Origin: Acidobacteriaceae bacterium
Lineage (GTDB): Bacteria; Acidobacteriota; Terriglobia; Terriglobales; Acidobacteriaceae
NCBI GenBank assembly: GCA_003165795.1
Contig: PMWW01000146.1
Span: forward strand, 11,489 to 75,488
Direction of reading: 5' to 3'
DNA: 64,000 bases
The position numbers and the translations under genes are program-made. Of this stretch, positions 1 through 28,323 are shown one piece after another (the stretch's first letter is position 1; every line of letters begins with the position of its first letter). Below the pieces are notes generated by a model, which was given only the letters and a program-made list of their open reading frames with translations, had not been told where the DNA came from and did no database searches.

Positions 1-552
1 AGTCTTGGCTTCGGTCATGGTGACAACCGCTCGCGCCAATGCGCCCTCGGTGACCGGACAGTCAAGCAGCAGTTGTACATTGATGGTGCCAGTGCAGAGC
101 GCGGTTTCGGTCACGGACTCCGGCGTTTCGCGCCAAGTGGTGGGATCGCCTGCGCAGGCAGCGTTGCCCTGCACCCCGGCAGTCACGACCGCAGTCACCC
201 ATATGTCATCCTCACCGCGCTGGACGGCCATGGCATAGTTCATGTTGGCCGCGGTCCCCATGGTCGCGACGCACTCCGGATCGAGATCGAGCTCCCGGCA
301 AACCGCGCGATGGTACTCTTCCAGCCCCAGCTTCATCATGCAAGCGTGGCGCTCGTGATGGGCCGATCCTTCGCAACTTTGGTGGTTCACTAAGTAACGT
401 ATGCTGTCCGACTGACCGCCATTGCAAGCGGAAGTGCTGAGGACGCGATGAGGCGTCAGCAGCGCCATCACCAGGAACCGGCCCGAACGGCGGAGGGAGA
501 AGGCCGGACCTTCGAGTAGAGTTTCCCAGTGCATAGGAACCATAGAGATCAT
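1..552 (-). CDS. CbiZ-like adenosylcobinamide amidohydrolase (N-terminal part; gene runs off the window start)
   Basis: Not in the ORF track because it is edge-truncated. My own minus-strand translation gives ...RVLSTSACNGGQSDSIRYLVNHQSCEG...TMGTAANMNYAMAVQ...VTAVVTAGVQGNAACAGDP...GTINVQLLLDCPVTEGALARAVVTMTEAKT. This fits the CbiZ-family motifs I remember (S..nGG, TAGv.NA..aGD, GTIN, TEAK). ATG start candidates lie at 534-552. Same strand as, and downstream of, the acs genes. Confidence 0.5.
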   Translation of the reverse strand, partial: MISMVPMHWETLLEGPAFSLRRSGRFLVMALLTPHRVLSTSACNGGQSDSIRYLVNHQSCEGSAHHERHACMMKLGLEEYHRAVCRELDLDPECVATMGTAANMNYAMAVQRGEDDIWVTAVVTAGVQGNAACAGDPTTWRETPESVTETALCTGTINVQLLLDCPVTEGALARAVVTMTEAKT

Positions 553-712
553 AACAAGCGGTAGTCCGTTGATGGACTTGGCCGACCGCCGGGCAGCCGC
601 CGGATACTCGGGAAAAAAGGTGGCCGTCAGCGAAAAGTGGTGGCAAGAAAGTCAGCGGCCGCTCTCAACAGCCGCTGACCGGGTCAGGAGATCGAAGATC
701 AGTCGTTCAGTC

Positions 713-1618
713 TTACGCGTTCGCGTTAACCGGGAGGGCCCGCGCCACCTTAGCCATAGCCGTAATGTGGGCCGGAGTGCTCCCGCAGCAGCCACCGATA
801 ATGTTGGCGCCGGCTTGCACCAACTCGGCCACAAAGGAAGCCATGAGTTCGGGCGTCTCCTTGAATACCGTCTTGCCGTCTTCCATGACCGGCGGACCGG
901 CGTTGGCATGGATAAGAATCGGTACGTTGGGCGCGGCAGCCCGCATTTGCCGCGTGATTTCGATCATGTTGGAAATGCCATTACCGCAGTTGGCGCCTAC
1001 GATATCGGCTCCCGCCGCTGCCGCTACCTTGGCCGCGCGATCAGGCTTGACTCCCATCATGGTACGGAAACCCTTGATGCCCGGCTCGAAGGCGAAGGTG
1101 CAGATCACCGGCAGTTTGGTATTTTCCTTGGTGGCTTTGATGGCCTGCTCGGCTTCCACCACAGAGGACATAGTCTCTATGCAAATGGCGTCAGCCCCAC
1201 CTTCGGCCAGAGCAACTACCTGGGCCTTGAACGCTTCATACAACTGCTCGGCGGTGGTATCGCCGCCCTCCTCGATCACGATGTGCCCGGTTGGACCCAC
1301 CGACGCGGCTACATAGCCCTTGTCGCCCATGGCATGTTTCGCCAGCTTAGCGGCGGCAACGTTGATTTCATGGACCTTGTCGGACAGTCCATAACCCTTC
1401 AGTTTGAACGAAGTGGCGCCGAACGAATTAGTTTCCACTACGTCGGAACCGGCGGTTACGTACGCCTCGGCGATTTCTTCTACCTCTTTGGGATGGCTGA
1501 CGCACCACGATTCGGGGCATTCCCCTCCTTCCATCCCTTTGGCAAACAGGAAGGTACCCATAGCTCCATCGGAGATAAGGATCTCGCCTGCCTTGATACG
1601 TTCCAAAAGACTCTTCAC
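713..1618 (-). CDS. Stand-alone homocysteine S-methyltransferase domain protein (MetH N-terminal/BHMT-type, Zn-thiol methyltransferase)
   Basis: 301 aa. ISDGAMGT...ETNSFGA...DAICIETM...GANCGNG...IGGCCGSTPAHI match the S-methyl_trans TIM barrel with its Zn-binding Cys (C...CC). The start overlaps the RACo stop by 4 nt (1615-1618). Confidence 0.8.
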   Translation of the reverse strand: MKSLLERIKAGEILISDGAMGTFLFAKGMEGGECPESWCVSHPKEVEEIAEAYVTAGSDVVETNSFGATSFKLKGYGLSDKVHEINVAAAKLAKHAMGDKGYVAASVGPTGHIVIEEGGDTTAEQLYEAFKAQVVALAEGGADAICIETMSSVVEAEQAIKATKENTKLPVICTFAFEPGIKGFRTMMGVKPDRAAKVAAAAGADIVGANCGNGISNMIEITRQMRAAAPNVPILIHANAGPPVMEDGKTVFKETPELMASFVAELVQAGANIIGGCCGSTPAHITAMAKVARALPVNANA

Positions 1619-3483
1619 GATGCTTTCCTCCTTCGACTTTCAAATGTTTCTGCTACCGTTGGAAACTGCTCCAAGTCCGTGTGGGGAAGGAATAGAGCCT
1701 TCACATAGCTGTCCATGTATTGCGGATTGGAGCTCATATCGACATAGGTTATGCGGGCGGCAATCTCCGCCAGACGACGGCGATGCTCCCGCGACAGCAG
1801 CGCAATATACGCGCCAGTAAGAGAAGAATTCCCGATGTAACGGAACCGGTCCAGCGGCAAGTCGGGCAGCATGCCGATGAAAACCGCGTCCGCGATCCGC
1901 ATGTATCGCCCAAAGCCGCCCGCGATGTAGACGCGAGCGACAGCGTCCCAAGTGAGGCCGACGTTTTCGAGAACCAGTGAGCAGGCGGCATAGATCGCCG
2001 CTTTGGTGCGGATCAGGTTCTCCAAGTCAGCCTCGGTGATTACCAGGTCCTTGCCGGTCCGGGTTTGCTCGGCAGTGGCCAACCGGAACGCGCGGCGACT
2101 GTCTTGTTGCACGATCCGGCCCGTGCCGGGTGACTCGAAGAAGCGGCCGGAGCGGTCCACAACTTCCTGCCGAAACAGTTCGCCCACCAGCGAGATGAGA
2201 CCGGATCCGCAGATGCCTGCCGGCTTGCCGCCACCGATCACGGAGAACTCTAAGCGGGCCCCGTTGTCGCCAATAGCCACCCGCTCGATGGCGCCTTCGG
2301 CCGCCCGCATTCCGCACTTAATTCCCGCTCCCTCGAACGCCGGACCCGCCGAGCAGGCGCAAGCCACCATCCAATCCGCATTGCCGATTACGATCTCGCC
2401 ATTGGTACCAATATCCATGAAGAGAAAGACATCGTGGGCGTTGGTAGACAAGTCGGTGCATAACAGGCCGGAAGTAATGTCGCCTCCGACGTAGCTGCCC
2501 ACGCCGGGGGCACAAACCACGATGGCCTGCGGATCGATATTTAGGCCGACGTCCTGGGCGCGCAGTTCGGGAACGGAGTTCACCGTCGGGACGTAAGGCG
2601 CCTCCCGGATGTAGCGCGGAGGCAAACCGAGCAGCAGGTGAGTCATGGTCGTGTTGCCGGCAACAAAGGCCGCGCGAATGTTCTGCGGCTCAATCGAAAT
2701 TTCGCCGGCCAGCTGCCGGACCAGACCATTGATGGTTTCCAGCACCAGGCCGCGGAGTTCCTCCAGGCGTTCCGGATTGCGGGCGTAGTCGATGCGACTG
2801 ATTACGTCCGACCCCCGCCGGATCTGCAGATTGTAGGAAGTCTGCGTGGCCAGCAACGATCCGTCATCCAAGTCAATCAGTTGCACCGCCACGGTGGTGG
2901 TGCCGATATCGACGGCCAAACCGAGCGGATGCTCGGGGCTGTCCCCCGCTTGCACATGGCGGACGCGCAACCCCGATGCGGATTCCTCGACGCCAACCGT
3001 GATGTCGCCATTGGCGGCCCGAACCGCTTCCGCCAACTCGCGCAGCACCGTGAGCTCGCTAGTGATGGGAGCAGGCCCGCCATTACGGCTCAATTCGCGG
3101 GTGAGGCGTGTCCAATCGCTATAGTGCTCCTCGATGGAAGCCGGCGGCACGGCCAGCCGCTGGTTTCGGTACAGCGGCGTGAGGCGGTCCCGGTCCGGCA
3201 GCAGCTTGGGGTCGATCAGGGAATGGCTGTCGCCCAGCACCCGTAATCCCTGTTGGCTGCGATCGGGCAGCCGTACCACAATGTCTGACACGACTTTGGT
3301 CTGGCAAGCCAGAACGGAGGTCGGGCGTCCCTCCACTTCTACGGAACACAACCCGCAGGAACCTTCGCCTCCACACGGCAACTCCAAGTCGAGGATGCCG
3401 GCACGCAACGCTGCCTCGTGGATCAGCGTTCCGGCCGGCACCTCGGCCACGACGTTGGCGGGCTGGAAGCGAACCGATGGCAT
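1615..3483 (-). CDS. RACo/AcsV-type ATP-dependent reductive activator of corrinoid proteins (2Fe-2S ferredoxin domain plus ASKHA ATPase domain)
   Basis: 622 aa. N-terminal plant-type ferredoxin motif LPCGGEGSCGLCSV...LACQ. ASKHA phosphate motifs AVDIGTTTVAV and FMDIGTNGEIVIG. Lies 4 nt downstream of acsC. Confidence 0.85.
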   Translation of the reverse strand: MPSVRFQPANVVAEVPAGTLIHEAALRAGILDLELPCGGEGSCGLCSVEVEGRPTSVLACQTKVVSDIVVRLPDRSQQGLRVLGDSHSLIDPKLLPDRDRLTPLYRNQRLAVPPASIEEHYSDWTRLTRELSRNGGPAPITSELTVLRELAEAVRAANGDITVGVEESASGLRVRHVQAGDSPEHPLGLAVDIGTTTVAVQLIDLDDGSLLATQTSYNLQIRRGSDVISRIDYARNPERLEELRGLVLETINGLVRQLAGEISIEPQNIRAAFVAGNTTMTHLLLGLPPRYIREAPYVPTVNSVPELRAQDVGLNIDPQAIVVCAPGVGSYVGGDITSGLLCTDLSTNAHDVFLFMDIGTNGEIVIGNADWMVACACSAGPAFEGAGIKCGMRAAEGAIERVAIGDNGARLEFSVIGGGKPAGICGSGLISLVGELFRQEVVDRSGRFFESPGTGRIVQQDSRRAFRLATAEQTRTGKDLVITEADLENLIRTKAAIYAACSLVLENVGLTWDAVARVYIAGGFGRYMRIADAVFIGMLPDLPLDRFRYIGNSSLTGAYIALLSREHRRRLAEIAARITYVDMSSNPQYMDSYVKALFLPHTDLEQFPTVAETFESRRRKAS

Positions 3484-3487
3484 GGCT

Positions 3488-4828
3488 TTACCGTGCGTCT
3501 TGGATCTTCATGTACGAGCCGAGATCCGAGGCCTCACCCGGACCAACCAGCACCTCCCAGCCGGGCAAGCCTTCCTCGATTTCGCCGCTGATTTGCGAGA
3601 CATAGCCGGGAATGATGATGCGGTGTTTTCCCTGGTCGGCAAGGTCAGTGGCCTTCACCGCATTAGCCACCTTTTCGCCCGAGAACTTGCCCGCGGCCCA
3701 TCCCGTTAGCACGCTCATGCCTTCGGTATCCACGACGAGTAAGTTCGCCGGGATGCCCGAGTTTTCAATTTCGCCGGAGACCAGGAAGTAGGTCAGGGAG
3801 AAATTGGTGGTGACCAGCACCGGAGAGTCCTTGCCGGTCTCGCCGATGGGATAGACCTTGGGATCGACCTGAATCGGCTTCTGCGGGTCGGTGTAGATGT
3901 TCTGCCGCAGCATCATCAAAGGCAGCAGGACTTCGAGCTTGATGCGGTCGAGCACTACGATGGACCCGTATTTGCACAGGAAAGTCGAGGCATCGGCAAC
4001 CACCGACGCGTCGTCCAGCGCGGTCACGAAGTTAATGATGGGATAGCCCAGCGGCTCGAAGGAATTCTTCAGCGCCGCCTTGCGGATGAGGGTGTTGTAC
4101 TGCAAGGTGGCTGCGGGATTGTCGGCCGGCAGGTCGAGCACGATGTCCTTCAGCCCCAGAGCGGCCAACTTGGTGGTCAGGGCCACCAACTCGTCGATGG
4201 TGGCCGCGCGGGCCACAATCGGCGCATCATACTTCAACGCCAAGGCCGCGACGGCATCGGCGTTAGCCGGGGTGGCGGCGTGAATCAAGGGCCGCTGGCC
4301 TGGCAACTCTTTCAGCCCGGCTTCCAGCGCGTCCAGGTTCGAGCTCCGCAGGATAATGCCCATGCCGGTAGAACCCGCTGCGGTCTTCACCAGATCGACG
4401 AAGGGTTTGACCTCTTCGCTGAAGTTGTCGACCAGCACCAGGTTGACGCGCAGTTGCTCGCCTACCCGTTCCAGGCAATAGTCCCGCACCTCGGCGATGC
4501 CGTGGCCACAATTGGAGAGCGGCTCATTGTCGGCAAAAGCGATGGCGATGGCGGTGGGGTGAACAAAGGTTTTGTCGTGGCGGAACATGACCGTCTCGTT
4601 GCCGATCAGGACTTCGCGTTCCGGCGGTCCGATCTTCACCAGGCGGATGGGCGGCTTGCTGGCCGCCCCGACAGTTTTGATGGCTTCTTCCGAAGCGTAA
4701 GGACAAGCCGCAAGTTCGGCGTTCTTGGCGGCCAGCTTCATGGCGAAAGCCATGCAGGTGGGTACACCACACTCGCCGCAGTTGGTCTTGGGCAGCAGCT
4801 TAAAGATTTGTAAACCAGTCATTGCCAT
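3488..4828 (-). CDS. acsC: Corrinoid iron-sulfur protein large subunit (AcsC/CdhE)
   Basis: 446 aa. N-terminal 4Fe-4S motif KTNCGECGVPTCMAFAMKLA...ACPY followed by TIM-barrel and corrinoid-binding parts. Lies 12 nt downstream of the acsB-acsD ORF. Confidence 0.9.
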   Translation of the reverse strand: MAMTGLQIFKLLPKTNCGECGVPTCMAFAMKLAAKNAELAACPYASEEAIKTVGAASKPPIRLVKIGPPEREVLIGNETVMFRHDKTFVHPTAIAIAFADNEPLSNCGHGIAEVRDYCLERVGEQLRVNLVLVDNFSEEVKPFVDLVKTAAGSTGMGIILRSSNLDALEAGLKELPGQRPLIHAATPANADAVAALALKYDAPIVARAATIDELVALTTKLAALGLKDIVLDLPADNPAATLQYNTLIRKAALKNSFEPLGYPIINFVTALDDASVVADASTFLCKYGSIVVLDRIKLEVLLPLMMLRQNIYTDPQKPIQVDPKVYPIGETGKDSPVLVTTNFSLTYFLVSGEIENSGIPANLLVVDTEGMSVLTGWAAGKFSGEKVANAVKATDLADQGKHRIIIPGYVSQISGEIEEGLPGWEVLVGPGEASDLGSYMKIQDAR

Positions 4829-4840
4829 TTTGTGGTCACC

Positions 4841-7800
4841 TCACTTACCAGAGCACATCATTTCGTCAATCTTGCGCTTGAGGGTGCGAGCAGCCAGCGG
4901 GTGGTAAACCACCAGCAGGTCCGCTCCCGCATTCAGGTAACACGCCGCCGTGGCGATCTCCAGCAGGGCTTCGCGCTCGTCTTCGCTTCCCCACAGGGGG
5001 AAGTCCTTACGTGCGGCCCGGCTCTCCTTCACCTTCGACACTTCAAAGCCGGAGTTCACCATCATGGGCATGGCCAGCATCGGATCGCCGGTAAAGGCCG
5101 AGGAGCGAATGCGTTCCATCACCGAGTAGGTGTATTCCAAGCCGTAGCCCACGGAGCTGGTCAGGGGATCGACGAGAATGTGGTCGGGTTGTACGCCCAT
5201 GGTGGTAAGCAGGATGTTGAGCTGCTTGCACATGTTGACGTCGATGGGAGTCTGCGCCACTACGCAGTGGCCGTAAGCCATGACGGTGGCGGCGATGGTC
5301 TTGTAGTTGTCGGTTTCCACCCAGTTCAACAGCAGGTTTTCTCCGGCAAAGGTGGAAGCGATGTGCTTCATCACGGAGTTGTTCTTTTCGAAGTGGCTGC
5401 AACCGGTAACGATTATCGGTACCCCCACCGCGCCCAGAATGTCCTTCACGATGTCGCCGGCCGCTTCCGCAGACATGTCGCCATTGTCAGGATGGCAGGT
5501 CGCCAGGCGGACACTGATGATTTCCGCACCCAGCTTCTCCACCAGATGGCGGGCCATGGCCTTCGGGTCCTTGAGCAGGTCTCCATAAGCGTTGCGCAGG
5601 AGATCAGGATACGACTTCGGCGGGCTGTCCAACACCTCCATGGCAATCACGGGTTTGTGACCCACGTTGCCCTCATAGTGGCGGAAGGGCAATACCTCAG
5701 CCCCGCCCAGGACGACCGACGAAGTGCGGGTCCCGCTGCCGCCCAGAGTGATGGTGCGGACGGCGACATTGGCTTTGTCCGGAACCACGGTCACTGACTT
5801 CGGCAACACGATGGCCGCCGAAGTGATGGGCCGTTCCACGCCTTCTGGTGGCGGCGCGGGCTTGGACGGGCGCGGCTTAACTTCGGCCGCTTTGGTTGGG
5901 GCGGCACTGGAGGCGGTGATCTGGGCTTCCAATTCCGCTTCGGTCGGCAGGCAGCTCGGACAGCTGTCCGTGGCAGGCACGGCGGCGGCCGAGGCCGAAG
6001 CTAACATGCCGGTTTGCATCAGCAGCATGTTGGCGCCGGCGTGCAGCAAGTGCATGGCAGTCGAGGCTTGCAGGACCGCCATCTGCTGCATCGGCGTCAT
6101 TCCCGGTTGAATCTCGGTGGCGGGAGGAGCGCTGCGCAGCTGTTCCAGTAGGCTGATAAGGGCCCCCATACCGTCATTACTTGGCGGAATGGGCGGTGCC
6201 GCTTGCCCGGCGGACGGCGCCGCAGCCGGGGACTTGGCCACGGGAGGCTTGGTACCCGTTGTACTGGCGGCGATGGTCGTCGTCGGCGTCGCAGCCGGAG
6301 GTTCGGCCACCGCTACGGCGGTATCGGCGACGGTGGTGGTCGAGGCCCCTCCACCCGAGGCTGCAGCTTGTACCACGGCGCCGCGGGCAGCGTCGACGGC
6401 GGCAGCTTCCTCTGACGGAGTGGTAATGTCCCACATTGTCAGAGCAGGGTGGCTAACCTTCTCCATGAAGGCCTGCACCGAGGTGATATCGGTACCGTTG
6501 GTCTCGTCGGCGATCAGGTCGGTGAAGTTTTCGACGCCAAAGGTCTTGCCGACTTTGTCGAGATCTTCCCGCAGAAAGTCCTTGAGGTCTTTGGGCATCC
6601 AGACAATGCGCTTGTGGCCGCCCTCGGCGGAGATGAACTTACGGCTGGTGATGTAGGCCTTGCCTACGCCGACGAATCCCGGTACCTGCTGACCGCCGCC
6701 GGCCGTGTTCGCTAGGGTGGAAAACTTCATCCCAGCGGGCGTTTCGCCCAGGTATTCGCGATTCACGATCATGACCCCGTTGACTTCCGGCATCAAGGCC
6801 ACGATGGCCTCGAAGCAGCCGCAACTGGTCATGGGATCTTCCAGCAGCGAGTAAGCGTTGAAGCGGGCCAGCGTCTGCTTGGAATTGGCGTAAACGTAAT
6901 CGTTGATGTTGGCCCACTGCCCGCGCACGGGATCGATGCACTCGCCTTTGATCAGCGGCTGATTGGGGCCGGTAGGATCGATCTCGTAGGCCGCCTTGCC
7001 GTCCAGCCAGTTGTAGGCGCCGCACAATCCCAGCCGTTCCGGGGTGATGACGCAAACATGGTTGGGAGCGAAGCTCTGACAGAGCAGGCAGGAGTAGAAG
7101 GTATCGACGCTCTCGTCGGTAAGCGACTCCATGCGTTGATTGCGGGCGCGATAGGAGTGGCGGGCGACGTCGATCCGCTCGGTTACATCTTTGGCGTCGG
7201 TGAACAGTGTCACCTGCACCTTGTCCACGATGGCGGGATAGTCGTTCAGGAACTTGGCATGCAGGATCTCGCCCAGGTGACGGATCTTGAAGCCCTTGTC
7301 CTTAGCGCCCTTGCTGATACGGATCCAGTTGATGTCGCGCTGACCCATGTGCCAGATACCTTCGGCGCCATTGATCAAGTGATGGATCTGGCGTTCGAGA
7401 ATCGGCTCGAAGTCAGGCTGCATTTTGCGCCCGGCAACTTCCACCCAAATGCCGATGGGCAGTGCGGGCAGCTCTTTGCTGTCGGGGTCGACTACAACAT
7501 CGTCGATTTCGGGGCCGACCACGGTGATCTTGCCGTCTTCCACCTCGGTGATATCCAGCGTGGTGACGTACTCGAAGCCCGGCGTCTTGTTGCCGCCGAA
7601 CTCGACGTAGGTTTGCTCCTTGCGGATGCGCTCGCCTTCGAAGGCGGCGCCAAACGCCACCGGGATGGGCACCTTGGCGACTTTGATCTTGCAGCCGCGG
7701 ACTTCCAGGCACTTCTCCACGATGTGGTCGATGGGCACGTTGGAGACAACATGCTCGTAGGTACAAATGCCGGTGGGCAGGATCTGCGGAATGTCAGTAT

Positions 7801-8617
7801 CGGCAATGGTGGGAAAGCCGTAACTGATCGCGCCCGCGGCGGCGGCGTATTTCTCTTCGGTCACTTCGCCTAGCGCCATAACGAAGGCGAAAGTGCGGTT
7901 CTTATTGTATTTAAGATTGCGTGCGTAATCGCCCGGCTTGACTCCGCCGAAGCTGAGGGCCACGCGGTTGGCAAATCCCAAGGCATAGACCGCTGCCGAG
8001 ATCTCCTTACCGAAGGGCACCAGCCGGGTATCCCAACCTAGTTCAACCTCCGCCTCCGCCAACTGCTCGGAGAAAGATGTGCCGTGACTATGCCCGGCCA
8101 TGAAGACGTAAAGGTTCTTCTCTTGCAACTCGCGGGCGATGCGGACGGCGTGCTCGACCGACGGTGCGGCGCCCACGATGGCAGCGAAGCCGGGGGCGGA
8201 GCCGTCGACAAACTCGACACCGCGTTCGCGAATGATCACGTCATTGGCTGCTCCCAGCCAGATGCCGTTGACCGGATTGGGGCCGATGAGATATTTGCAA
8301 GCCTCGATAATTTCGAAGGCGAACAGAGTGGCGATACCCGAATCGAGGGTGCCACCCAGGTAAGGTAACCAGTTATTGTCGCTGGGTACGGCCGGCAGCA
8401 GCCGGTTGCACTCATCGAGAATTTTCTGCATGTCCGAGAGCCGGTCCACTCGTTCGCCCAACAGCGAGTAAATGACCGGCAGGGAGTAAGCGGTGTCTGG
8501 AAAGCCCACTTCACAATCGCTGCCTTTGGCCGCGATGGCTTTTGCCAGGTAGTCTTCCGCGTCGCGCACAATCTGGTGGGCGCCGCGGATTGCCGACGAT
8601 GCGATGATTTTGCTCAT
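4841..8617 (-). CDS. acsB: Fused acetyl-CoA synthase (AcsB) and CFeSP small subunit (AcsD) joined by a low-complexity linker
   Basis: 1258 aa uninterrupted ORF. Residues 1-735 (nt about 6412-8617) are ACS, with the A-cluster motifs SCLLCQSFAPNHVCVITPERLGLCGA and MTSCGCFEAIV. Residues about 740-930 (nt about 5820-6400) are an Ala/Pro/Thr/Met/Gln-rich linker. The last about 320 aa (nt 4841 to about 5820) look like AcsD/CdhD (...VIAMEVLD...IISVRLATCHPD...VPIIVTGCSH...VDPLTSSVGYGLEY...). Confidence 0.85.
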   Translation of the reverse strand: MSKIIASSAIRGAHQIVRDAEDYLAKAIAAKGSDCEVGFPDTAYSLPVIYSLLGERVDRLSDMQKILDECNRLLPAVPSDNNWLPYLGGTLDSGIATLFAFEIIEACKYLIGPNPVNGIWLGAANDVIIRERGVEFVDGSAPGFAAIVGAAPSVEHAVRIARELQEKNLYVFMAGHSHGTSFSEQLAEAEVELGWDTRLVPFGKEISAAVYALGFANRVALSFGGVKPGDYARNLKYNKNRTFAFVMALGEVTEEKYAAAAGAISYGFPTIADTDIPQILPTGICTYEHVVSNVPIDHIVEKCLEVRGCKIKVAKVPIPVAFGAAFEGERIRKEQTYVEFGGNKTPGFEYVTTLDITEVEDGKITVVGPEIDDVVVDPDSKELPALPIGIWVEVAGRKMQPDFEPILERQIHHLINGAEGIWHMGQRDINWIRISKGAKDKGFKIRHLGEILHAKFLNDYPAIVDKVQVTLFTDAKDVTERIDVARHSYRARNQRMESLTDESVDTFYSCLLCQSFAPNHVCVITPERLGLCGAYNWLDGKAAYEIDPTGPNQPLIKGECIDPVRGQWANINDYVYANSKQTLARFNAYSLLEDPMTSCGCFEAIVALMPEVNGVMIVNREYLGETPAGMKFSTLANTAGGGQQVPGFVGVGKAYITSRKFISAEGGHKRIVWMPKDLKDFLREDLDKVGKTFGVENFTDLIADETNGTDITSVQAFMEKVSHPALTMWDITTPSEEAAAVDAARGAVVQAAASGGGASTTTVADTAVAVAEPPAATPTTTIAASTTGTKPPVAKSPAAAPSAGQAAPPIPPSNDGMGALISLLEQLRSAPPATEIQPGMTPMQQMAVLQASTAMHLLHAGANMLLMQTGMLASASAAAVPATDSCPSCLPTEAELEAQITASSAAPTKAAEVKPRPSKPAPPPEGVERPITSAAIVLPKSVTVVPDKANVAVRTITLGGSGTRTSSVVLGGAEVLPFRHYEGNVGHKPVIAMEVLDSPPKSYPDLLRNAYGDLLKDPKAMARHLVEKLGAEIISVRLATCHPDNGDMSAEAAGDIVKDILGAVGVPIIVTGCSHFEKNNSVMKHIASTFAGENLLLNWVETDNYKTIAATVMAYGHCVVAQTPIDVNMCKQLNILLTTMGVQPDHILVDPLTSSVGYGLEYTYSVMERIRSSAFTGDPMLAMPMMVNSGFEVSKVKESRAARKDFPLWGSEDEREALLEIATAACYLNAGADLLVVYHPLAARTLKRKIDEMMCSGK

Positions 8618-10563
8618 TGCAGTTCGCGCCTCGATTTCATGTCGTACATCTTGCGTTCCTTTTGAGTATTGATGTGGAGTGCATCGCGCTTGCGCTCGAT
8701 GTGGGCTAGCATCTTGTCGGCTGCGACTACCGGATCAGGCTCCCACTCGAAGCGTCCGCCGGTAATGCTTTCCATCTCACTGCACAGCAGGTCGTGGACG
8801 TTCTTGCTGCCCTCGACGTAGAGAGGATGGCCGAGCACGACATACATTCCGCTAGCTACGAAGTAATGGCCGATAGCGACGGCCTTCTCGCTCATCCATT
8901 CCGGCGCGGCGCCGGCCACGGGCAGGTCGGCGATGTCATCGCCCAGACCGCCTTCGGCTACCAGGTTAGTGGCTGCCATCAGGATGCGGCTGTTGTCGAC
9001 GCACGAGCCCATGTGCAAGACGGGAGGAATGCCGACCGCCTCGCAGACTTCGCGCAAGCTGTCGCCGGCCTGGGCCAGCGCGGCTTCCGGTGTCAGCAGC
9101 CCCGCCTTGGCACAGGCGATGGCGGCGCACCCGGTTTGCAGCACCAGCACGTTACGCTTGATCAATTCCTGGGCCAGCCTGACGTGGCCCTGATCGGCCA
9201 CTACCTTGGGATTGCTGCATCCGATGATGCCGGCCACGCCGCGAATGCGGCCATCGATGATGGCATCGTTCAGCGGACGGAAAGTACTGCGGAAGCGGCC
9301 GCCCAGCATGTGAAAGATGGTTTCGTTGGAGAAGCCGGCCACCAGTTCCATTGACTCGTTGGGAATGTGGACGCGTTGCGGATCGCGATTTTCGAAGTTG
9401 TCGATGGCCTTGCGAATCAGCTCGCTGGCTTGCTCGTAACCGGTGTTCGAGTGGAACGTGATCTGCTCGGCTTCGGCGGTGTGGGCGATCTCCGAGGTGC
9501 TGACCAGTTGGGTGTGGAAGCACTTGGAGACTTGCGCCAGCGATGGCATCACGCACTGCACATCGATCACCATGACTTCTACTGCACCGGTAAGAATGGC
9601 CAGCTCCTGTTGCAGGAAGTTGCCCACGATGGGCAGCCCATGGCGCATCAGAACTTCGTTGGCGGTACAGCAGATGCCGGCAACATTGATTCCCTCGGCG
9701 CCCTTGGACTTCGCGTAATCGATCAACTCCTGGTCCCCGGCGGCCACGGCCAGCATCTCTGACAATGTGGGTTCGTGTCCGTGGACGATGATGTTGACTT
9801 TGTTTCCAGCCAGCACGCCCAGGTTCACCCGGCTGCGCACCGGCTTGGGAGTGCCGAAGAGAATGTCTGACACTGTGGTAGCGATGGCCGAGCCTACCCA
9901 GCCGTCAGCCAGGCTGCACTTTAATCCACCCATGATCAGATGGCGATAGTCGTGGTCAACGCCCATGTTGGTGCGATGCATCAGCTCCACCACCGCGGAG
10001 TCGATGCCATTGGGATTGATGTTTAGCTTGTTCCACACCGCCTGGCGTTTTTCCGGGGCCAGCTTCAGGGTGGCGTTGGGCTCTTCCGACCAGGCGAATT
10101 GGGTCAGAAAGAAGTCCGCCAGATCGCTGGCGATGGTCAGGTCGTCTTTGCCTTCGGTAGCAATCTCGAAGAAACGCGCCGCCTCGTGCAAGCGCAGTGG
10201 CTCGACGATTTTGTAGTCGCCGCCTTTGCCCTGCGACACCGCCTTGAGGGTGCGCACCAGCATGCGGCCATGGTCGGAGTGAGCGGCAGTACCGGCGGCA
10301 ATCTCACGCAGCAGGTTGCGCGCAGTAATAGTATCGGCGTCGGCGCCGCAAATGCCGAGGTGGGCTTTGGGGGTGATGCGGCAAGGGCCCATGTGACACA
10401 GCCGGCAGCAAACGCCGTCTGTGCCGAACTTACACTGGGGTTTTTGCAGCTCATAGCGGTCGAAGACCGTACTTATCTCGGCTGCACCCGCAATGCTTAC
10501 CATATCGATTGTTGCTGGGTCCGTCGAAACCGGTAACCCTGCTTTTCGACCGGTGGTCGCCAT
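8614..10563 (-). CDS. acsA: Ni-Fe carbon monoxide dehydrogenase catalytic subunit (CooS/AcsA)
   Basis: The track ORF 8614-10761 carries a 66-aa Arg-rich extension. The likely start is the internal ATG at 10561-10563 (MATTGRKAG...), which overlaps the cooC stop as ATGA. CODH motifs CKFGTDGVCCRLCHMGPCRI, plus IVHGHE and CTANE regions. The stop overlaps the acsB start (8614-8617). Confidence 0.9.
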   Translation of the reverse strand: MATTGRKAGLPVSTDPATIDMVSIAGAAEISTVFDRYELQKPQCKFGTDGVCCRLCHMGPCRITPKAHLGICGADADTITARNLLREIAAGTAAHSDHGRMLVRTLKAVSQGKGGDYKIVEPLRLHEAARFFEIATEGKDDLTIASDLADFFLTQFAWSEEPNATLKLAPEKRQAVWNKLNINPNGIDSAVVELMHRTNMGVDHDYRHLIMGGLKCSLADGWVGSAIATTVSDILFGTPKPVRSRVNLGVLAGNKVNIIVHGHEPTLSEMLAVAAGDQELIDYAKSKGAEGINVAGICCTANEVLMRHGLPIVGNFLQQELAILTGAVEVMVIDVQCVMPSLAQVSKCFHTQLVSTSEIAHTAEAEQITFHSNTGYEQASELIRKAIDNFENRDPQRVHIPNESMELVAGFSNETIFHMLGGRFRSTFRPLNDAIIDGRIRGVAGIIGCSNPKVVADQGHVRLAQELIKRNVLVLQTGCAAIACAKAGLLTPEAALAQAGDSLREVCEAVGIPPVLHMGSCVDNSRILMAATNLVAEGGLGDDIADLPVAGAAPEWMSEKAVAIGHYFVASGMYVVLGHPLYVEGSKNVHDLLCSEMESITGGRFEWEPDPVVAADKMLAHIERKRDALHINTQKERKMYDMKSRRELQ

Positions 10564-11330
10564 CAGTTTTTCTCCTGTTGATTGGTAAATAACTTGGCTA
10601 ATAAATCGTTCATGGCTATGCGCGCCGGGGAGCCCGGCGCAATCGTGGAAACCGGCACGCCGTCGGCATCGAGGGCGGCAACGTCCTGGTCCAGTGGAAT
10701 GCTGGCCAGCAAAGTAAGTCCTGTAGCTTTGACGGCCTCGGCAATAGCCTCGGGCAGGCATCCTCCGGGCACGCGATTGACGATCAGGCCGCGTTGTTTG
10801 GTAGGCAGGGCGACTTCATCGGCCAGCGCCGAGATACGTCCCGCGGTCCTAATTCCCCGCACCGTACAGTCGGAAACAATCAGCAGATAATCTACGGAGA
10901 GCAAGGTGCGGCGGGAGATATGCTCCAAGCCAGCTTCGCTGTCGATGACGATGTTGCGGTAGTTGCTGGCCAGGCGGTCCAGCACCTCACGCAATACATT
11001 ATTGGCAAAGCAGTAACAACCCTGGCCTTCGGGCCGGCCCATCACGATCAGGTCATAGCCCTTCTGTTCTACCAGAGCTTCCTGCACGCGCAGGTCGAGA
11101 AACTCTTGCTTGGAGACGCCTTTCAGCGCGGTTGCTTCCTTGCGGGCGCTTTCGCGAATGCCGCCCACGGTTGCGCAATAGGCAATGCCCATCGCCTCGT
11201 TCAGGTTGGCATTGGAGTCGGCATCGACCGCCAGCACCGGCGACTCGCCGTGCGTCGCCAGCCAGCTCAGGGTGAGAGCCGCCAGCGTTGTCTTCCCTAC
11301 CCCACCTTTTCCTGTCATTGCCAAAATCAT
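10563..11330 (-). CDS. cooC: CooC-type Ni-insertion ATPase (CODH maturation)
   Basis: 255 aa. Deviant Walker A GKGGVGKTT, CxC metal motif GQGCYCF, MinD/ParA fold. Confidence 0.85.
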   Translation of the reverse strand: MILAMTGKGGVGKTTLAALTLSWLATHGESPVLAVDADSNANLNEAMGIAYCATVGGIRESARKEATALKGVSKQEFLDLRVQEALVEQKGYDLIVMGRPEGQGCYCFANNVLREVLDRLASNYRNIVIDSEAGLEHISRRTLLSVDYLLIVSDCTVRGIRTAGRISALADEVALPTKQRGLIVNRVPGGCLPEAIAEAVKATGLTLLASIPLDQDVAALDADGVPVSTIAPGSPARIAMNDLLAKLFTNQQEKN

Positions 11331-11347
11331 GACTACCCATCCTCGGC

Positions 11348-11409
11348 GGTGGGTGGATGATGAAGAGAACCAGGAGCGCGCTCGGCTCCCACTCGGTCAC
11401 CCACCCACC
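11348..11409 (-). promoter_or_regulatory. Intercistronic inverted repeat (GGTGGGTGG ... CCACCCACC) in the 89-nt gap between the MetE-like gene and cooC
   Basis: 9-nt perfect arms at 11348-11356 and 11401-11409. A GAGCGCGCTC palindrome lies between them. This is the only sizeable gap inside the otherwise overlapping operon. Confidence 0.4.
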
Positions 11410-11419
11410 GCAGTTGCTC

Positions 11420-12499
11420 TTAAGCGCCCGTACCGATCAAGGCTGGGGCGCCAATTTCCTGCCGCAGCTTGGTGCTCATTTGGTGCAGCGTTTGGAAAAC
11501 CAATTCAGCGTCGGCGACCGGCAGCGATCCCGTGCCACAAGACGGCGTGATGAACGATTGCCGGCAAATGAGCTGCGTATCCAACCCCGTTATCTTGGCC
11601 AGCTTCTCGATCAGTGCGCAAAACTTGGCGACCAGCGAATCGACCGTCTGGGCATGGATTTTGGCGCTGTTCGTGGGCACGATTCCGACCGCCAGCGCCT
11701 TTCCAGCTTTAAGGTGCGCCTTGAAGTTGTCGGGATAGAGCAGAATGGTTTCGCCATAATCAAAGGCATCAAAGTTAATGATGTCCACACCCGCATCCAT
11801 CAGGATCGGCCACTCGGTATTGCCGCAGCAATGCACTCCCGACAGGGCTCCCTCGGCATGGATCGCCTCAATTACTTCACCCAGTTTGGCCACGGTGTCG
11901 TCGCGGGTCACGCTGACATAAGTGGAGGAGCCGAAGGCGGACAGGATGGGCTCGTCTACAAAGCAAATGACTTTCTCGGCGTAGGGCTGGAACTTGCGAA
12001 TCTGCCAGCGACATTTCATGGTCAATCCCTTGACCACCACGTCGACGAATTCCGGATTGTAGTAAATCGCCCGTTTTTTCTCGTCCACAATGCTGAGGCC
12101 GACGCTGAGCGGGCCCGTGGTCTGTACCTTCACGAAGGGACGCTTGATGCCGGAAGCTTTGAGGGCCGCCTCCATGGCATAAATGCCTTTCGAGAAGTCA
12201 GGGGTGATGCGAAAAGCCTCGAGGTCGTCGGCGCAGAACTTTTCGTAAAACTCCGCCAGGTCCTGGCTGGTGTCGCCGGTGGTGTCGAAGTACATGCGGC
12301 CCTTCACCGGGTCGAGGACCACCCGCGGAATGCCTTCGCTGTACTGGATTTCCATCTGTTCATGAAGCCCGAAGGCCGGCAGCTGCGGCCAGATCGGCGC
12401 GTTGGGGATGTTCTCTAGAACGACTTTGACGGCCTGCTCTGGATCTTTGTGAGGCAAGCTGCCGATTGCGGTAGCGGTACAGCAGGGCTCGAAACTCAT
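11420..12499 (-). CDS. Core-MetE-like (Meth_synt_2, single barrel) Zn-dependent methyltransferase; candidate folate-independent methionine synthase (Mes-like)
   Basis: 359 aa. MetE C-terminal-barrel motifs TAIGSLPHKD, FVDEPIL, GVHCCGN (His-x-Cys) and ITPSCGTG. No N-terminal folate-binding barrel. The start overlaps the stop of the upstream CooC-like gene (12496-12499). Confidence 0.7.
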   Translation of the reverse strand: MSFEPCCTATAIGSLPHKDPEQAVKVVLENIPNAPIWPQLPAFGLHEQMEIQYSEGIPRVVLDPVKGRMYFDTTGDTSQDLAEFYEKFCADDLEAFRITPDFSKGIYAMEAALKASGIKRPFVKVQTTGPLSVGLSIVDEKKRAIYYNPEFVDVVVKGLTMKCRWQIRKFQPYAEKVICFVDEPILSAFGSSTYVSVTRDDTVAKLGEVIEAIHAEGALSGVHCCGNTEWPILMDAGVDIINFDAFDYGETILLYPDNFKAHLKAGKALAVGIVPTNSAKIHAQTVDSLVAKFCALIEKLAKITGLDTQLICRQSFITPSCGTGSLPVADAELVFQTLHQMSTKLRQEIGAPALIGTGA

Positions 12500-13296
12500 A
12501 ACACGCTCTCTTTCTCGGTGCAGTACGACTGCAATGTTTTCTGAAGCGATCGGAATGGATTGAGTAAATCCGGATAGCCCAGGTCGACCAGCGCTACACC
12601 CTGGCGGTCAGCCCGAGCTATGCGTACATCGAGGGGAATGGTGCCGAGCAGGTGCTCGGCCCCGAACTCGGAGGCGATCCAGCGGCTATCTTCTTCCGGA
12701 TCGGCGGTCTTGTTGAGCACCACGCCGAAGCGTCCGATGCCCAGATCGGCGGACATCTGGCGGACCCGCTCGGCGGTCTCCACGCTGCGCTTGCCCGGCT
12801 CGACCACCACCATCATTAAGTCCACACCCATGGCTGTGCCGCGCCCCAGGTGCTCGATGCCGGCTTCCATGTCGAGGATCACGATCTCGCCGTGGCGCAG
12901 TACCAGATGCGAGACCAGGCTTTTCAGCAGCACGCTCTCCGGACAGGCGCAGCCGCCGAGAGCGTGCTCCACCGCGCCCAGCACCAGCAGGTCGACTCCC
13001 TTGTAATGGACGGCGTATTTCTCGGCGATATCGGCAACTTCAGGATTGATCTTGAACATCTGCCCGAACTGCTTGACTTTGGCGCCGGTGCGCTCTTCGA
13101 TCAGCTTGCGTTCGGTGGAAATGGTGTGGACTTGAGAACGGAGTTCGGAAGGTAAGCCGATGGCGGAAGCCAGATTTGCGTCGGGGTCGGCGTCAACTGC
13201 TAATACCCGGTGACCGTCGGCCGCATACAGCCTGGCCAGGGTTCCCGCCACGGTGGACTTTCCGACTCCGCCTTTGCCTGAGATTGCAAGTTTCAT
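12496..13296 (-). CDS. Second CooC/AcsF-type Ni-insertion ATPase
   Basis: 266 aa. GKGGVGKST Walker A, CxC motif LGGCACPES. The start overlaps the GntR stop (13293-13296). Confidence 0.85.
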   Translation of the reverse strand: MKLAISGKGGVGKSTVAGTLARLYAADGHRVLAVDADPDANLASAIGLPSELRSQVHTISTERKLIEERTGAKVKQFGQMFKINPEVADIAEKYAVHYKGVDLLVLGAVEHALGGCACPESVLLKSLVSHLVLRHGEIVILDMEAGIEHLGRGTAMGVDLMMVVVEPGKRSVETAERVRQMSADLGIGRFGVVLNKTADPEEDSRWIASEFGAEHLLGTIPLDVRIARADRQGVALVDLGYPDLLNPFRSLQKTLQSYCTEKESVL

Positions 13297-14129
13297 GGTT
13301 CGAGCCTCGATCGAGCAATGTGTATGCCGTACTGCTTGCGGCGGCGCCGGGACGACACCGAAGTGTTCTTCCGGGCGCTCTCCTGGTCGCGGATGACCTG
13401 TTCAACGGCCAGCATGGCGAAGCCGACGATTTCTTCGGAAGAACGCCGCGCCGCCAGTGGATTGCGCTGTTCGATGGCCTCGGTCAGCTTGCGGTACTCT
13501 TCCAGTTCGAGGGCCACGGATGCCGGCAAGAGCAAGGTGTAGGAAAGAGCCACCCGATAAGGGGCGTGGATGGTGGCATTCAATTGCCGGAACAACGGAT
13601 TGTGCGAGGCGGCAACCACCGCAGTGTGATACTGCAGGTCCGCGTCGATGGCCCCTTCCAGGTCCTGAGCTGCCAGGATCTCCAGCCGCCGCGACAGACA
13701 CTGACGAATGCAGGCAATCTCCTCCTGATCGGCGCGCAGCGCGGCGAATCCGGAAGCAATCGGTTCAATCGCCAAGCGGACTTCGCACAGGTCGCGCAGG
13801 AAGCGCGCATCCGGTTTCAGCTCCGACTGCCAGGCGAGAATGTCGGGATCGAGTTGGTTCCAGTCGGTGCGGGGCCGGGCGCGCGTCCCGGAGCGGGGAC
13901 GCACCTGCACCATGCCCTTGTTTTCTAAAACCTTGACCGCTTCGCGCAGGATGCTGCGGCTTACCCCCACCTGTTTACACAATTCCGCTTCGTTGGGGAA
14001 GGCGATCTGTTGCTCGTTCCGCTCCGCTTGGATGACCTGCAGGGCCAAGGCCCGGGTCACCCGGCTGTGCAGACTTTCGGTGGTGTCGAGCTGCGCGAAT
14101 AATGTAGCGGGTCCCTTCATCTCAGTCAT
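13293..14129 (-). CDS. GntR-family transcriptional regulator with FCD (FadR C-terminal) ligand domain
   Basis: 278 aa. Winged helix-turn-helix ...FPNEAELCKQVGVSRSILREAVKVLENKGMVQVRPRSGT... followed by an all-helical FCD-like domain. First gene of the acs operon. Confidence 0.85.
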   Translation of the reverse strand: MTEMKGPATLFAQLDTTESLHSRVTRALALQVIQAERNEQQIAFPNEAELCKQVGVSRSILREAVKVLENKGMVQVRPRSGTRARPRTDWNQLDPDILAWQSELKPDARFLRDLCEVRLAIEPIASGFAALRADQEEIACIRQCLSRRLEILAAQDLEGAIDADLQYHTAVVAASHNPLFRQLNATIHAPYRVALSYTLLLPASVALELEEYRKLTEAIEQRNPLAARRSSEEIVGFAMLAVEQVIRDQESARKNTSVSSRRRRKQYGIHIARSRLEP

Positions 14130-14171
14130 ATCATATGCTCAGTTTAGAGGTGCACAAGAGAAATCGCGGCG

Positions 14172-14235
14172 CCGACTACAAAAATTTGCCGCCTTTCCCA
14201 AAATGGGAATTAAGCTCTTGACGCCTTGTAGTCGG
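14172..14235 (-). promoter_or_regulatory. Nested inverted repeats upstream of the gntR/acs operon: outer arms CCGACTACAA / TTGTAGTCGG, inner palindrome TTCCCA-AAA-TGGGAA
   Basis: Outer 10-nt arms at 14172-14181 and 14226-14235. Inner 6-3-6 palindrome at 14195-14209, 66-80 nt upstream of the gntR ATG (14129). Confidence 0.5.
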
Positions 14236-14322
14236 GGCTTTGACTTCGCATCCCCCATCCCGACGTATTTCTGGATGGTTGTCAAGTACCAAATCAGGAA
14301 ATCGTCAGAGATGACATTCCGC

Positions 14323-18096: not shown

Positions 18097-18099
18097 TCC

Positions 18100-18885
18100 T
18101 TACCAGACTTGCGCCAATCCATCCGAGGGTGGTGAGACACAGTATTGAGCCAGGTCTGACTGGCTGACGCAAAATGTGCGTCCCAGCAGGTCGGGCCGCA
18201 TAACCTCCGCGGTTGGACCTGCGATCCACGCCGGCTCCGGGGTGAGCATGATGACGGAGGAGAAGTTCTCGGCCACCAGATGGAGGTCGTGGACGGCGGC
18301 GATGATGGTGATCCCACGCTTATTGAGCCGCCGCAGCAGGGCGATCAACTCGATCTGGCGGCCGACGTCGAGATGCTGAGTGGGCTCGTCGAGCAGCATA
18401 AGCTTGGATTGCTGGGCCAGGCCGATGGCGATTTTCACTCGCTGGCGCTCGCCGCCCGACAGCTGCGAGAAAGGCCGATCACGCAGTCCCACGATGTCCA
18501 CCGCTTCCATCGCGCTCTCGATGGCCTCACGGTCCCGCGTCGTGCCGGCTCCGAACAGCGGCAGATAAGGCACCCGGCCTTGGGCGACGATCTCTTCCAC
18601 GCGAAAGTTGAAGGGCAGCTCAAGTTCCTGCGGGACCAGAGCAATCGAGCGCGGAAGGTGTTGCCGCGACCAGTCCGCCAGTGGCTTGCCTTGCAGCAAG
18701 ACGTTGCCGCTGGCGGGCTGCAGCAATCGCGAGGCCAGCTTCAGCATGGTGGTCTTGCCCACGCCGTTGGGGCCCAGCAGGGCAACCATCTCTTGCGTCT
18801 CGATGGCGAAAGACAGGCGGTCCAGCAGAAGCCGCGAGCCGCGCGAGAACGAAACATTTTGGAATTCGAGAATGGTGGAGATCAT
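18100..18885 (-). CDS. btuD: ABC transporter ATP-binding protein, BtuD/FecE type
   Basis: 261 aa. Walker A GPNGVGKTT, signature LSGGERQRV, Walker B MLLDEPT. Adjacent to a FecCD permease. Confidence 0.8.
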   Translation of the reverse strand: MISTILEFQNVSFSRGSRLLLDRLSFAIETQEMVALLGPNGVGKTTMLKLASRLLQPASGNVLLQGKPLADWSRQHLPRSIALVPQELELPFNFRVEEIVAQGRVPYLPLFGAGTTRDREAIESAMEAVDIVGLRDRPFSQLSGGERQRVKIAIGLAQQSKLMLLDEPTQHLDVGRQIELIALLRRLNKRGITIIAAVHDLHLVAENFSSVIMLTPEPAWIAGPTAEVMRPDLLGRTFCVSQSDLAQYCVSPPSDGLAQVW

Positions 18886-25225: not shown

Positions 25226-25237
25226 TTCCATGCCATC

Positions 25238-28040: not shown

Positions 28041-28164
28041 ACTTCATCCCGCGCACAAGTCACGTCTCGGACGGGAAAGCTCGTGCCGCAAATCTTCCAG
28101 AAGACCCTAGCGAGCAGGTCGTCAAGATGCCGATTGACCCTCCCATCGAGACCAAATCGGACAA

Positions 28165-28317: not shown

Positions 28318-28323
28318 ATTCCG

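Follow-up and report, generated by a model that had tools for sequence, protein, structure and literature searches.

Where does the methyl group of the corrinoid iron-sulfur protein (CFeSP) go when a bacterial CO dehydrogenase/acetyl-CoA synthase (CODH/ACS) operon has no acsE gene and contains two candidate homocysteine methyltransferases? The question is raised by a stretch of 64,000 nucleotides from an Acidobacteriaceae bacterium (assembly GCA_003165795.1, contig PMWW01000146.1, positions 11,489 to 75,488), hereafter called the window. An earlier, sequence-only reading of this DNA had proposed that the operon couples CFeSP directly to homocysteine methylation. We find that the best reading, held with middling confidence, is a methyl-CFeSP-to-methionine tap working through M359, a protein similar to the single-domain MetE known as core MetE or MesB, and perhaps also through HcyMT, a stand-alone homocysteine domain of the MetH type. 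We favor it because both proteins appear to keep Zn ligands and homocysteine-binding residues, the operon recurs in other genomes, and AcsE is absent nearby.

Organization of the operon

Positions 1-14129 of the window carry, on the minus strand, ten co-directional and mostly overlapping genes. The first encodes a GntR/FCD transcription regulator, LldR/PdhR-like (13293-14129; PF00392 and PF07729). It is followed by CooC1, a CooC-type P-loop ATPase of the Ni-insertion maturase family (12496-13296; PF01656 and related families), by M359, a MetE-like candidate Zn-dependent homocysteine methyltransferase of 359 aa recognized by fold and motifs (11420-12499), and by a second CooC-type P-loop ATPase, CooC2 (10563-11330; PF01656, PF13614). 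The catalytic subunit of Ni-CODH, CooS/AcsA (8614-10563; PF03063 571 bits, TIGR01702 684 bits), measures 649 aa from the start at 10563, which was taken from the gene call on public contigs. Next comes a single open reading frame (ORF) of 1258 aa (4841-8617; NF040764 and NF003376), hereafter ACS~AcsD, made of ACS (AcsB; 6398-8617; PF18537, PF03598, PF19436; NF040764 1047 bits), an Ala/Pro/Thr-rich linker of about 200 aa seen in the translation (5798-6397) and, as its C-terminal part, the domain of AcsD, the CFeSP small subunit (4841-5797; PF03599; NF003376 363 bits). The large, corrinoid- and 4Fe-4S-binding CFeSP subunit AcsC (3488-4828; PF04060 and PF03599; NF003195 530 bits) precedes RACo/AcsV, the ATP-dependent reductive corrinoid activator (1615-3483; PF00111, PF17650, PF17651, PF14574), and HcyMT, a stand-alone MetH-type homocysteine-binding Zn methyltransferase domain of 301 aa (713-1618; PF02574). 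The tenth gene is the 5' part of cbiZ, encoding adenosylcobinamide amidohydrolase (1-552; PF01955 117 bits), which runs past the window edge.

Stop and start codons overlap as ATGA at 13293-13296, 12496-12499 and 8614-8617, and the junction between cooC2 and cooS is TGATG, with a 1-nt overlap at 10563. The acsC gene is set off from its neighbors by 12 and 4 nt; wider gaps, of 89 and 160 nt, come after the M359 gene and before cbiZ, respectively. The sequence-only reading had described at least ten tightly joined, co-directional genes including CooS, ACS, CFeSP, RACo and two CooC proteins, and the ORF, Pfam and NCBIfam calls agree with it. Two of its details needed correction: the first gene is the regulator, and AcsD is the C-terminal part of the ACS ORF rather than a separate gene. 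Its junction positions were right, except that the supposed ATGA at 1615-1618, between the RACo and HcyMT genes, is GTGA, since HcyMT starts with GTG, preceded by an AGGAGG ribosome-binding site. It had also drawn CbiZ into the methyl-transfer theme, a view that we do not retain; CbiZ is a B12-remodelling gene product encoded after the 160-nt gap, outside the methyl-transfer logic. A consensus scan for promoters and terminators gave a result no better than shuffled sequence.

The carbonyl-branch machinery is complete, with CooS, ACS fused to AcsD, AcsC, two CooC maturases and RACo. All four of AcsA/CooS, AcsB, AcsC and AcsD are clustered and score above curated cut-offs. The maturase and activator set consists of the two CooC-type ATPases and RACo, which has the three RACo Pfam domains and a Fer2 domain and reaches 598 bits against NF040756, for a cut-off of 800.

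Absence of folate-side genes

Pfam scans covered about 50 ORFs picked as genes in the window (the antisense ORF 33504-34298 was scanned in place of 33819-34589) and gave no PF00809, PF02219, PF01268 or FolD domain. Six-frame phmmer searches of the window with the E. coli MetH pterin domain, MetF, FolD, MetE and an Fhs as queries found nothing either; the same pterin query matches the genuine AcsE structures 2e7f and 2yci of Moorella and Carboxydothermus at 50-54 bits. The earlier statement that no ORF of the 64 kb resembles AcsE or a MetH pterin domain, Fhs, FolD or MetF is thus borne out by two kinds of search and a positive control.

The sequence beyond position 1 was read from public contigs (up to 155 kb) that encode an identical HcyMT protein; locus L001 is such an extension. 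Immediately after cbiZ, where an acsE gene had been suggested as a check, the contigs carry cbiB, pduO, mtaC, mtaB, ramA and a DUF1638 gene instead. Over the approximately 84 kb covered, that is, the window and 10 kb past either end, no AcsE, MetF, FolD or Fhs was found; the 10 kb past the right end hold envelope and transport genes only.

A recurrent operon type across phyla

To place the operon in a wider context, AcsC was searched in one genome per species and the window proteins were mapped onto the 80 resulting loci; a locus was counted as evaluable for a gene when it reached far enough to show it. The 80 loci span at least seven phyla. Those of Acidobacteriota belong to Korobacteraceae (AcsC 94-96% identical, which makes the window that of a Korobacteraceae-like organism), Terracidiphilus, Bryobacteraceae and Solibacteraceae, and the others to Armatimonadota, NC10, Fibrobacterota/Chitinivibrionales, Aminicenantes, metagenome-assembled genomes (MAGs) labelled ‘Eubacteriales’, KSB1, a deltaproteobacterium and Syntrophales. 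They share one operon type, CooC1-M359-CooC2-CooS-ACS(~)AcsD-AcsC-RACo-[HcyMT], with the GntR/FCD regulator as first gene also in the loci of Acidobacteriota relatives. Of the 50 loci evaluable for M359, 49 have it within the acs operon (52-93% identity), and at least 44 of the 67 evaluable for HcyMT have a PF02574 gene next after RACo. HcyMT is 70-93% identical in Acidobacteriota and Armatimonadota; the ‘Eubacteriales’ and Aminicenantes proteins are 35-37% identical, with a full-length PF02574 domain. Six-frame phmmer found no AcsE-like, MetF-like or FolD-like ORF in any of the 80 loci, AcsE being sought within 10 kb. This AcsE-less arrangement, conserved with both methyltransferase genes across several phyla, argues for a functional link to CFeSP.

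ACS and AcsD are also fused into one ORF in 37 of the 65 loci evaluable for them (Acidobacteriota, Armatimonadota, Fibrobacterota, NC10 and the deltaproteobacterium), the linker being conserved at 37-75% where detectable. In the ‘Eubacteriales’ and Aminicenantes group the ACS and AcsD genes are separate, with cooC2 between them. No description of this fusion was found in the literature searched. The operon ends at HcyMT, with the next genes on the opposite strand, in six further lineages for which downstream ORFs were listed, and so behaves as a self-contained unit. The whole pattern is best explained by a bacterial CODH/ACS operon type that is self-contained and has spread laterally.

Some loci of the ‘Eubacteriales’/Aminicenantes group have additional corrinoid-related genes. 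In L063, L068, L070, L071, L078 and L089 the first gene of the operon encodes another RACo, a paralogue of about 30% identity; the one scanned, from L078, has 557 aa and gave no hit for Fer2. Next to the paralogue gene there is often one for a small MetH-B12-like corrinoid protein. In the ‘Eubacteriales’ MAG locus L083 (14300-20240), the RACo and HcyMT genes are followed by genes for an S-adenosylmethionine (SAM)-type methyltransferase, two MtaC-like proteins, an MttB-family methyltransferase, a 281-aa protein and a radical SAM protein. The 281-aa protein is class-II tRNA-synthetase-like, and possibly PylS-like.

M359 is a MetE-like protein

M359 gave no Pfam hit at E<=1, including PF01717 (Meth_synt_2), and a profile search of the PDB by sequence returned no relative. 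A weak match of 22 bits was obtained with NF002119, an archaeal ‘methionine synthase’ model. The AlphaFold2 model of the protein has a predicted local distance difference test (pLDDT) score of 76 and a predicted template modelling (pTM) score of 0.81, and the best Foldseek matches in the PDB were the MetE structures 1xpg, 4l6h and 1t7l (E 1e-5 to 1e-4). Alignment of M359 to the C-terminal half of E. coli MetE with hhalign had a probability of 1.4% and nonetheless brought the KxxxTGP, DEP and HxC motifs into register; it served for residue mapping only. Five motifs are invariant in the M359 family: TAIGSxP (MetE S433), KxQTTGP (no MetE residue assigned), xDEP (D599), HCCGNTEW (H641 and C643) and TPSCGTG (C726). 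With the initial Met counted, the mapped residues of M359 are S14, D182, H223, C225, D244 and C321. S14 and D182, in IGSxP and DEP, correspond to the homocysteine-binding S433 and D599 of MetE and are conserved in the family, and H223, C225 and C321 are kept in 130-132 of 132 family representatives. The position of the third Zn ligand (MetE E665), judged by spacing to E235 of MesB, is occupied by the invariant D244, with E229 close by. In our reading of the motif, Q52 stands at the position of MetE E484. The spacing of the six mapped residues is within 9-10 residues of the published positions in MesB of Dehalococcoides mccartyi.

The M359 family comprises 1946 clusters at 50% identity, mostly annotated ‘hypothetical protein’. 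Among distant relatives, two of ten scanned gave sub-threshold PF01717 hits (20.3 and 15.7 bits, cut-off 21). On the evidence of the predicted fold and the motifs, M359 is probably a homocysteine methyltransferase with the MetE fold and catalytic motifs.

Could the conserved metal site serve another purpose? One alternative is that M359 is not a methyltransferase and acts, with the adjacent CooC ATPases, as a metal-binding maturation factor for the Ni centers of CODH/ACS. The genomic association is consistent with such a role: the M359 gene adjoins cooC1 in all 47 loci with both genes, on the same strand and directly downstream in 46 and divergently in L091, and the stop and start codons of the pair often overlap. 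The invariant His-Cys-Cys...Cys site could also fit a maturation factor, as could P0176, a 616-aa ENA protein that carries CooC-type ATPase domains together with a 74% identical homologue of M359. Only this one database sequence shows the fusion, which none of the 47 genomic loci has, and a frameshift or faulty gene calling may have produced it. Conservation in M359 extends beyond the metal ligands to the substrate-binding motifs of MetE, and three relatives (35-40% identical) are encoded by solitary genes, distant from CODH genes in the stretch of their genomes that was read and among uninformative neighbors. We therefore regard a maturation role as highly improbable. A fusion of CooC1 and M359 was considered on the basis of P0176 and of a long ORF in L051, and was rejected; the L051 ORF is an antisense artefact.

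M359 might also stand in for AcsE and load CFeSP with methyl groups taken not from folate but, for instance, from a methyl thioether or from methionine, in the manner of MtsA/MtaA-type Zn enzymes. It is in the operon in every lineage without AcsE, its model also resembles the MtaA-like methyltransferase 4ay7 (template modelling score 0.52), and some of its distant relatives give marginal, sub-threshold URO-D hits. For a thioether, passing its methyl group to Co(I) is an uphill step, which speaks against this direction of flow. Methyl-tetrahydrofolate (methyl-THF), for its part, is not used by core MetE (PMC7005905). A variant of the idea is that CFeSP handles the pterin itself, like CdhDE, and archaeal CoFeSP does pass its methyl group to pterin without AcsE (PMC13370988); the CFeSP encoded here is of the bacterial type, not that of the archaeal acetyl-CoA decarbonylase/synthase (ACDS). 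We consider replacement of AcsE, in either form, to be improbable.

HcyMT is a stand-alone MetH homocysteine domain

HcyMT consists of a full PF02574 domain and nothing else (profile positions 1-282/283, 230 bits) and aligns end to end with the homocysteine domain of E. coli MetH. The Zn-binding Cys triad (MetH C247, C310 and C311) is conserved in HcyMT and six relatives, and the DGxMGT, ETN and IET motifs of the MetH domain are kept. The NCBIfam models that match it best describe larger enzymes, one half of which is a homocysteine methyltransferase. It has a great many homologues, with more than 7800 hits. No pterin-binding partner module (PF00809) for HcyMT was found within the 84 kb or in the related loci. 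With the MetE signatures in M359 and the MetH homocysteine domain in HcyMT, the earlier identification of two unrelated Zn-thiol methyltransferases embedded in the operon was correct, and both, to judge from residues and predicted fold, appear built for homocysteine.

The partner of HcyMT could lie outside the acs operon. In L001, cbiZ and the genes after it (11067-19124 in all) lie on the operon strand; those after cbiZ encode CbiB, a PduO-type adenosyltransferase, an MtaC-like corrinoid protein of 231 aa (14330-15025; PF02607 and PF02310; 94 bits to the B12 domain of E. coli MetH), MtaB of 472 aa (PF12176), located between the mtaC-like and ramA-like genes, a RamA-like activator of 517 aa (16825-18378) and a DUF1638 protein (18381-19124). 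HcyMT could thus be the homocysteine module of a split MetH-like system, with the MtaC-like protein as B12 module and MtaB as donor enzyme, together forming a methanol-dependent methionine synthase, and only M359 would tap CFeSP. The mtaC, mtaB, ramA and DUF1638 set lies 3.4 kb downstream of HcyMT on the same strand and is kept in Korobacteraceae loci; together with PF02574, a corrinoid protein, a RamA-like protein and DUF1638 make up the accessory set of the split MetH of Phaeobacter (PMC5764234). The corrinoid core of the Ruegeria system also serves another donor methyltransferase (PMC12478193), small MetH-B12-like proteins occur near the ‘Eubacteriales’ and Aminicenantes operons, and a split system would account for the coexistence of two homocysteine methyltransferases. 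Set against this, HcyMT overlaps the RACo gene of the acs operon, and three B12-remodelling genes separate it from mtaC. Moreover, loci of Armatimonadota, Bryobacteraceae and Solibacteraceae, in which CFeSP is the sole corrinoid protein within 10 kb, and unclassified loci have the RACo-HcyMT pair without a small corrinoid protein within that distance. On balance we find this assignment of HcyMT rather unlikely; it is compatible with the explanation that we prefer for M359.

A more far-reaching combination would be a folate-free carbonyl module, in which M359 replaces AcsE, homocysteine/methionine is the methyl carrier, HcyMT loads from the MtaBC methanol system or other small corrinoid proteins, and M359 connects the carrier with CFeSP and ACS, so that methyl groups of methanol or acetyl-CoA are exchanged free of pterin. 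We mention it as a speculative scheme of low probability.

A homologue of HcyMT occurs in another setting in a Bryobacteraceae MAG (L006; 10001-10900, 73% identical), after a 57-aa ORF with a hit to the RACo C-terminal domain (9717-9890) and with no acs genes around. This looks like a decayed RACo-HcyMT junction in which HcyMT alone was retained.

A proposed route from methyl-CFeSP to methionine

Starting from the gene content, the conservation of the operon, the catalytic residues and the lack of AcsE nearby, all directly observed, we infer a route, and with it which compound donates the methyl group, in which direction ACS runs, which partner each enzyme uses and how M359 and HcyMT divide the labor. 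The cobalt of CFeSP would be methylated by ACS cleaving acetyl-CoA, or by an AcsE encoded elsewhere, if any. A Zn-activated homocysteine thiolate in M359, and perhaps in HcyMT, would then attack methyl-Co(III), yielding methionine and Co(I). The CO released would be oxidized by CooS, and any Co(II) formed would be re-reduced by RACo. Three of the four modules of MetH would thus be present as separate proteins, CFeSP as the B12 module, RACo as the reactivation module and M359 and/or HcyMT as the homocysteine module; the fourth, the pterin module, would be the absent one.

The direct transfer of a methyl group from CoFeSP to homocysteine by the core MetE MesB has already been proposed (Deobald 2020, PMC7005905; Price 2021, PMC7857596), so the idea itself is not new. 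D. mccartyi is without AcsE and MetF, and its methionine methyl group comes from C2 of acetate (PMC7857596, PMC7005905). MesB occurs only with AcsC/AcsD, and some methanogens have a mesB-acsCD operon (PMC7857596, PMC7005905).

Several observations weigh against the tap, and some of them bear on its chief competitor, an ordinary Wood-Ljungdahl pathway whose acsE and folate branch are encoded elsewhere in the genome. M359 and HcyMT would then be methionine synthases standing beside corrinoid machinery, at a branch point and with no folate bypass. The CFeSP itself points in this direction. The nearest solved relative of AcsD is 4djd_D, the CFeSP small subunit of Moorella (281 bits), and those of AcsC are 2h9a_A and 4djd_C; the two subunits score 233-403 bits against solved bacterial proteins and are closer to these than to the archaeal 9fzy. 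By sequence, AcsC and AcsD are therefore nearest to the AcsE-dependent CFeSPs of Moorella and Carboxydothermus, and a self-sufficient CFeSP of the archaeal kind was rejected on this ground. In the Syntrophales-like locus L091, Fhs adjoins M359, so some carriers have a folate branch, and such carriers probably have AcsE elsewhere as well. Peat Acidobacteriota MAGs have been reported to be Wood-Ljungdahl-positive (PMC12296737). Nor does the regulation look like that of methionine synthesis: the top NCBIfam matches of the regulator (13293-14129) are LldR and PdhR, both under cut-off, a likeness that is not methionine-type and suggests central-carbon control, and no SAM, THF or other riboswitch was found in positions 1-15000 of the window.

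Other difficulties concern the tap alone. Close HcyMT homologues also occur by themselves, far from any acs genes, and the MtaC-like protein, MtaB, RamA-like protein and DUF1638 may, by analogy with split systems, offer HcyMT another partner. Two enzymes for one reaction in a single operon lack an explanation, and a full Ni-Fe-S operon is costly for one methyl group.

The ordinary pathway nevertheless meets obstacles of its own. In bacteria acsE usually clusters with acsABCD (PMC12827605), yet it is absent within 10 kb in all 80 loci, and MetF and FolD are near none of them. The operon is self-contained and common to phyla not known for the pathway, and an essential partner would be expected to travel along. 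We consider this alternative possible though somewhat unlikely. The coupling of CFeSP to homocysteine put forward in the sequence-only reading thus stands in part. The residues, the lack of acsE nearby and the conservation speak for it; the AcsE-dependent type of CFeSP, the Fhs gene of one carrier and the possible use of an MtaC-like protein by HcyMT do not.

Comparison with known systems

The closest parallel to M359 is MesB of D. mccartyi (cbdbA481/Q3Z939). Both have one MetE catalytic domain of about 350 aa without the folate-binding half; compared through the published MesB positions, both have His/Cys/Cys Zn ligands and the Ser and Asp homocysteine residues; and both are strictly associated with AcsC/AcsD (in the close clade, for M359) and lack AcsE in the cluster. 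The differences are several. The M359 gene sits between two cooC genes in a bacterial acs operon, whereas the published operon link is limited to methanogens, and CODH is present here but absent in D. mccartyi. M359 has no PF01717 hit. At the place expected for the third Zn ligand it has an invariant Asp instead of Glu, and at the position of MetE E484 a Gln, like MesA and MesC (PMC7857596), in a region highly conserved in the M359 family and variable in MesB. A second, unrelated homocysteine methyltransferase, HcyMT, is encoded in the same operon.

HcyMT, for its part, recalls the split MetH of Phaeobacter inhibens and MtgBCD of Ruegeria pomeroyi, which share with the present locus a stand-alone PF02574 module, a separate corrinoid protein and a modular methyl-donor enzyme, as well as a RamA/RACo-type ATP-dependent reactivator and DUF1638 in place of the MetH activation domain. 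Unlike in those systems, no PF00809 module is nearby, the adjacent corrinoid protein and activator are the CFeSP and RACo of the acs operon, and the nearby donor module is no pterin or glycine-betaine methyltransferase but MtaB, for methanol. The enzymes encoded here are also anaerobic and oxygen-sensitive, whereas Phaeobacter and Ruegeria are aerobic marine alphaproteobacteria. MtaABC systems share MtaB, the MtaC-like protein and the RamA-like activator found just outside the window. No MtaA of the URO-D or pterin type was found near mtaB/mtaC, and the only second-methyltransferase candidates nearby are HcyMT and M359.

With the canonical acs clusters of Moorella thermoacetica and Carboxydothermus hydrogenoformans the operon shares AcsA/CooS, AcsB, AcsC, AcsD, CooC/AcsF and RACo. 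It differs in having no acsE, in the fusion of AcsB to AcsD through a long low-complexity linker, in the two homocysteine methyltransferases and in the GntR regulator. Archaeal ACDS (CdhABCDE) likewise has no separate AcsE, and its corrinoid module is tied to ACS, through disordered regions there and a covalent linker here; in contrast to ACDS, the ACS of the present operon has the bacterial N-terminal A1/prismane domain, CdhB is missing, and the CFeSP is nearer to bacterial proteins.

The literature search gave nothing specific on Acidobacteriota or Armatimonadota acs operons that contain PF02574 or MesB. Within the literature searched, four features are new: a widespread AcsE-less type of bacterial acs operon in which a MesB-like gene has its fixed place between the cooC genes; an acs operon that closes with a stand-alone MetH homocysteine domain; two unrelated homocysteine methyltransferases in one operon; and the ACS~AcsD fusion, in an operon of abundant soil Acidobacteriota beside B12 salvage genes and a methanol methyltransferase set. 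Earlier support for the direct route from CoFeSP to methionine consisted of a single labelling study, in vitro experiments with free methylcobalamin and phylogenetic patterns of co-occurrence. The labelling study behind the D. mccartyi shunt is reportedly that of Zhuang 2014. The operon described here is the strongest bacterial genomic link so far. It couples the translation of candidate methionine synthases to that of CFeSP, ACS and RACo, occurs in seven phyla or more, among them Acidobacteriota abundant in soil and peat, and is a compact, clonable gene set for in vitro transfer tests. Members of the large ‘hypothetical’ M359 family can now be flagged, on motifs and modelled fold, as probable methionine synthases, and soil MAGs that carry the operon may be misjudged when they are called ‘Wood-Ljungdahl positive’ or ‘MetH present’. 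It also raises the question of why two unrelated homocysteine methyltransferases stay together.

Cobalamin genes and other features of the window

Upstream of the operon, co-directional with it and outside its tight part, Pfam hits define a B12 uptake and remodelling cluster on the minus strand (14323-27489), with outer-membrane protein/TonB receptors, a BtuCDF-like ATP-binding cassette transporter, CobC, CobT and CobQ. Two minus-strand cobalamin riboswitches (28161-28331, 82 bits; 25062-25223, 79 bits) control the cobQ/btuF and the TonB-receptor/cobT/cobC/btuCD genes, co-directional into the acs operon. On the other side of the operon, cbiZ encodes 381 aa in full on the public contigs, and the DUF1638 gene is followed by two genes without Pfam hit and then by DnaG.

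A third cobalamin riboswitch, on the plus strand (32376-32570, 52 bits), precedes a gene for a 198-aa membrane protein (32951-33547). Downstream of it lies a plus-strand ORF of 256 aa (33819-34589) with a hydrophobic segment at its end, whose N-terminal sequence presumably resembles the C-terminal part of CobN-type chelatases. At 57845-59014 (plus strand), 44 kb from the operon, is the gene of a pyridoxal phosphate enzyme of Cys/Met metabolism (PF01053, 347 bits), which could serve homocysteine supply or methionine breakdown. Two large ORFs, of 711 aa (49722-51857, minus strand) and 490 aa (36207-37679, plus strand), match no Pfam family at the thresholds used.

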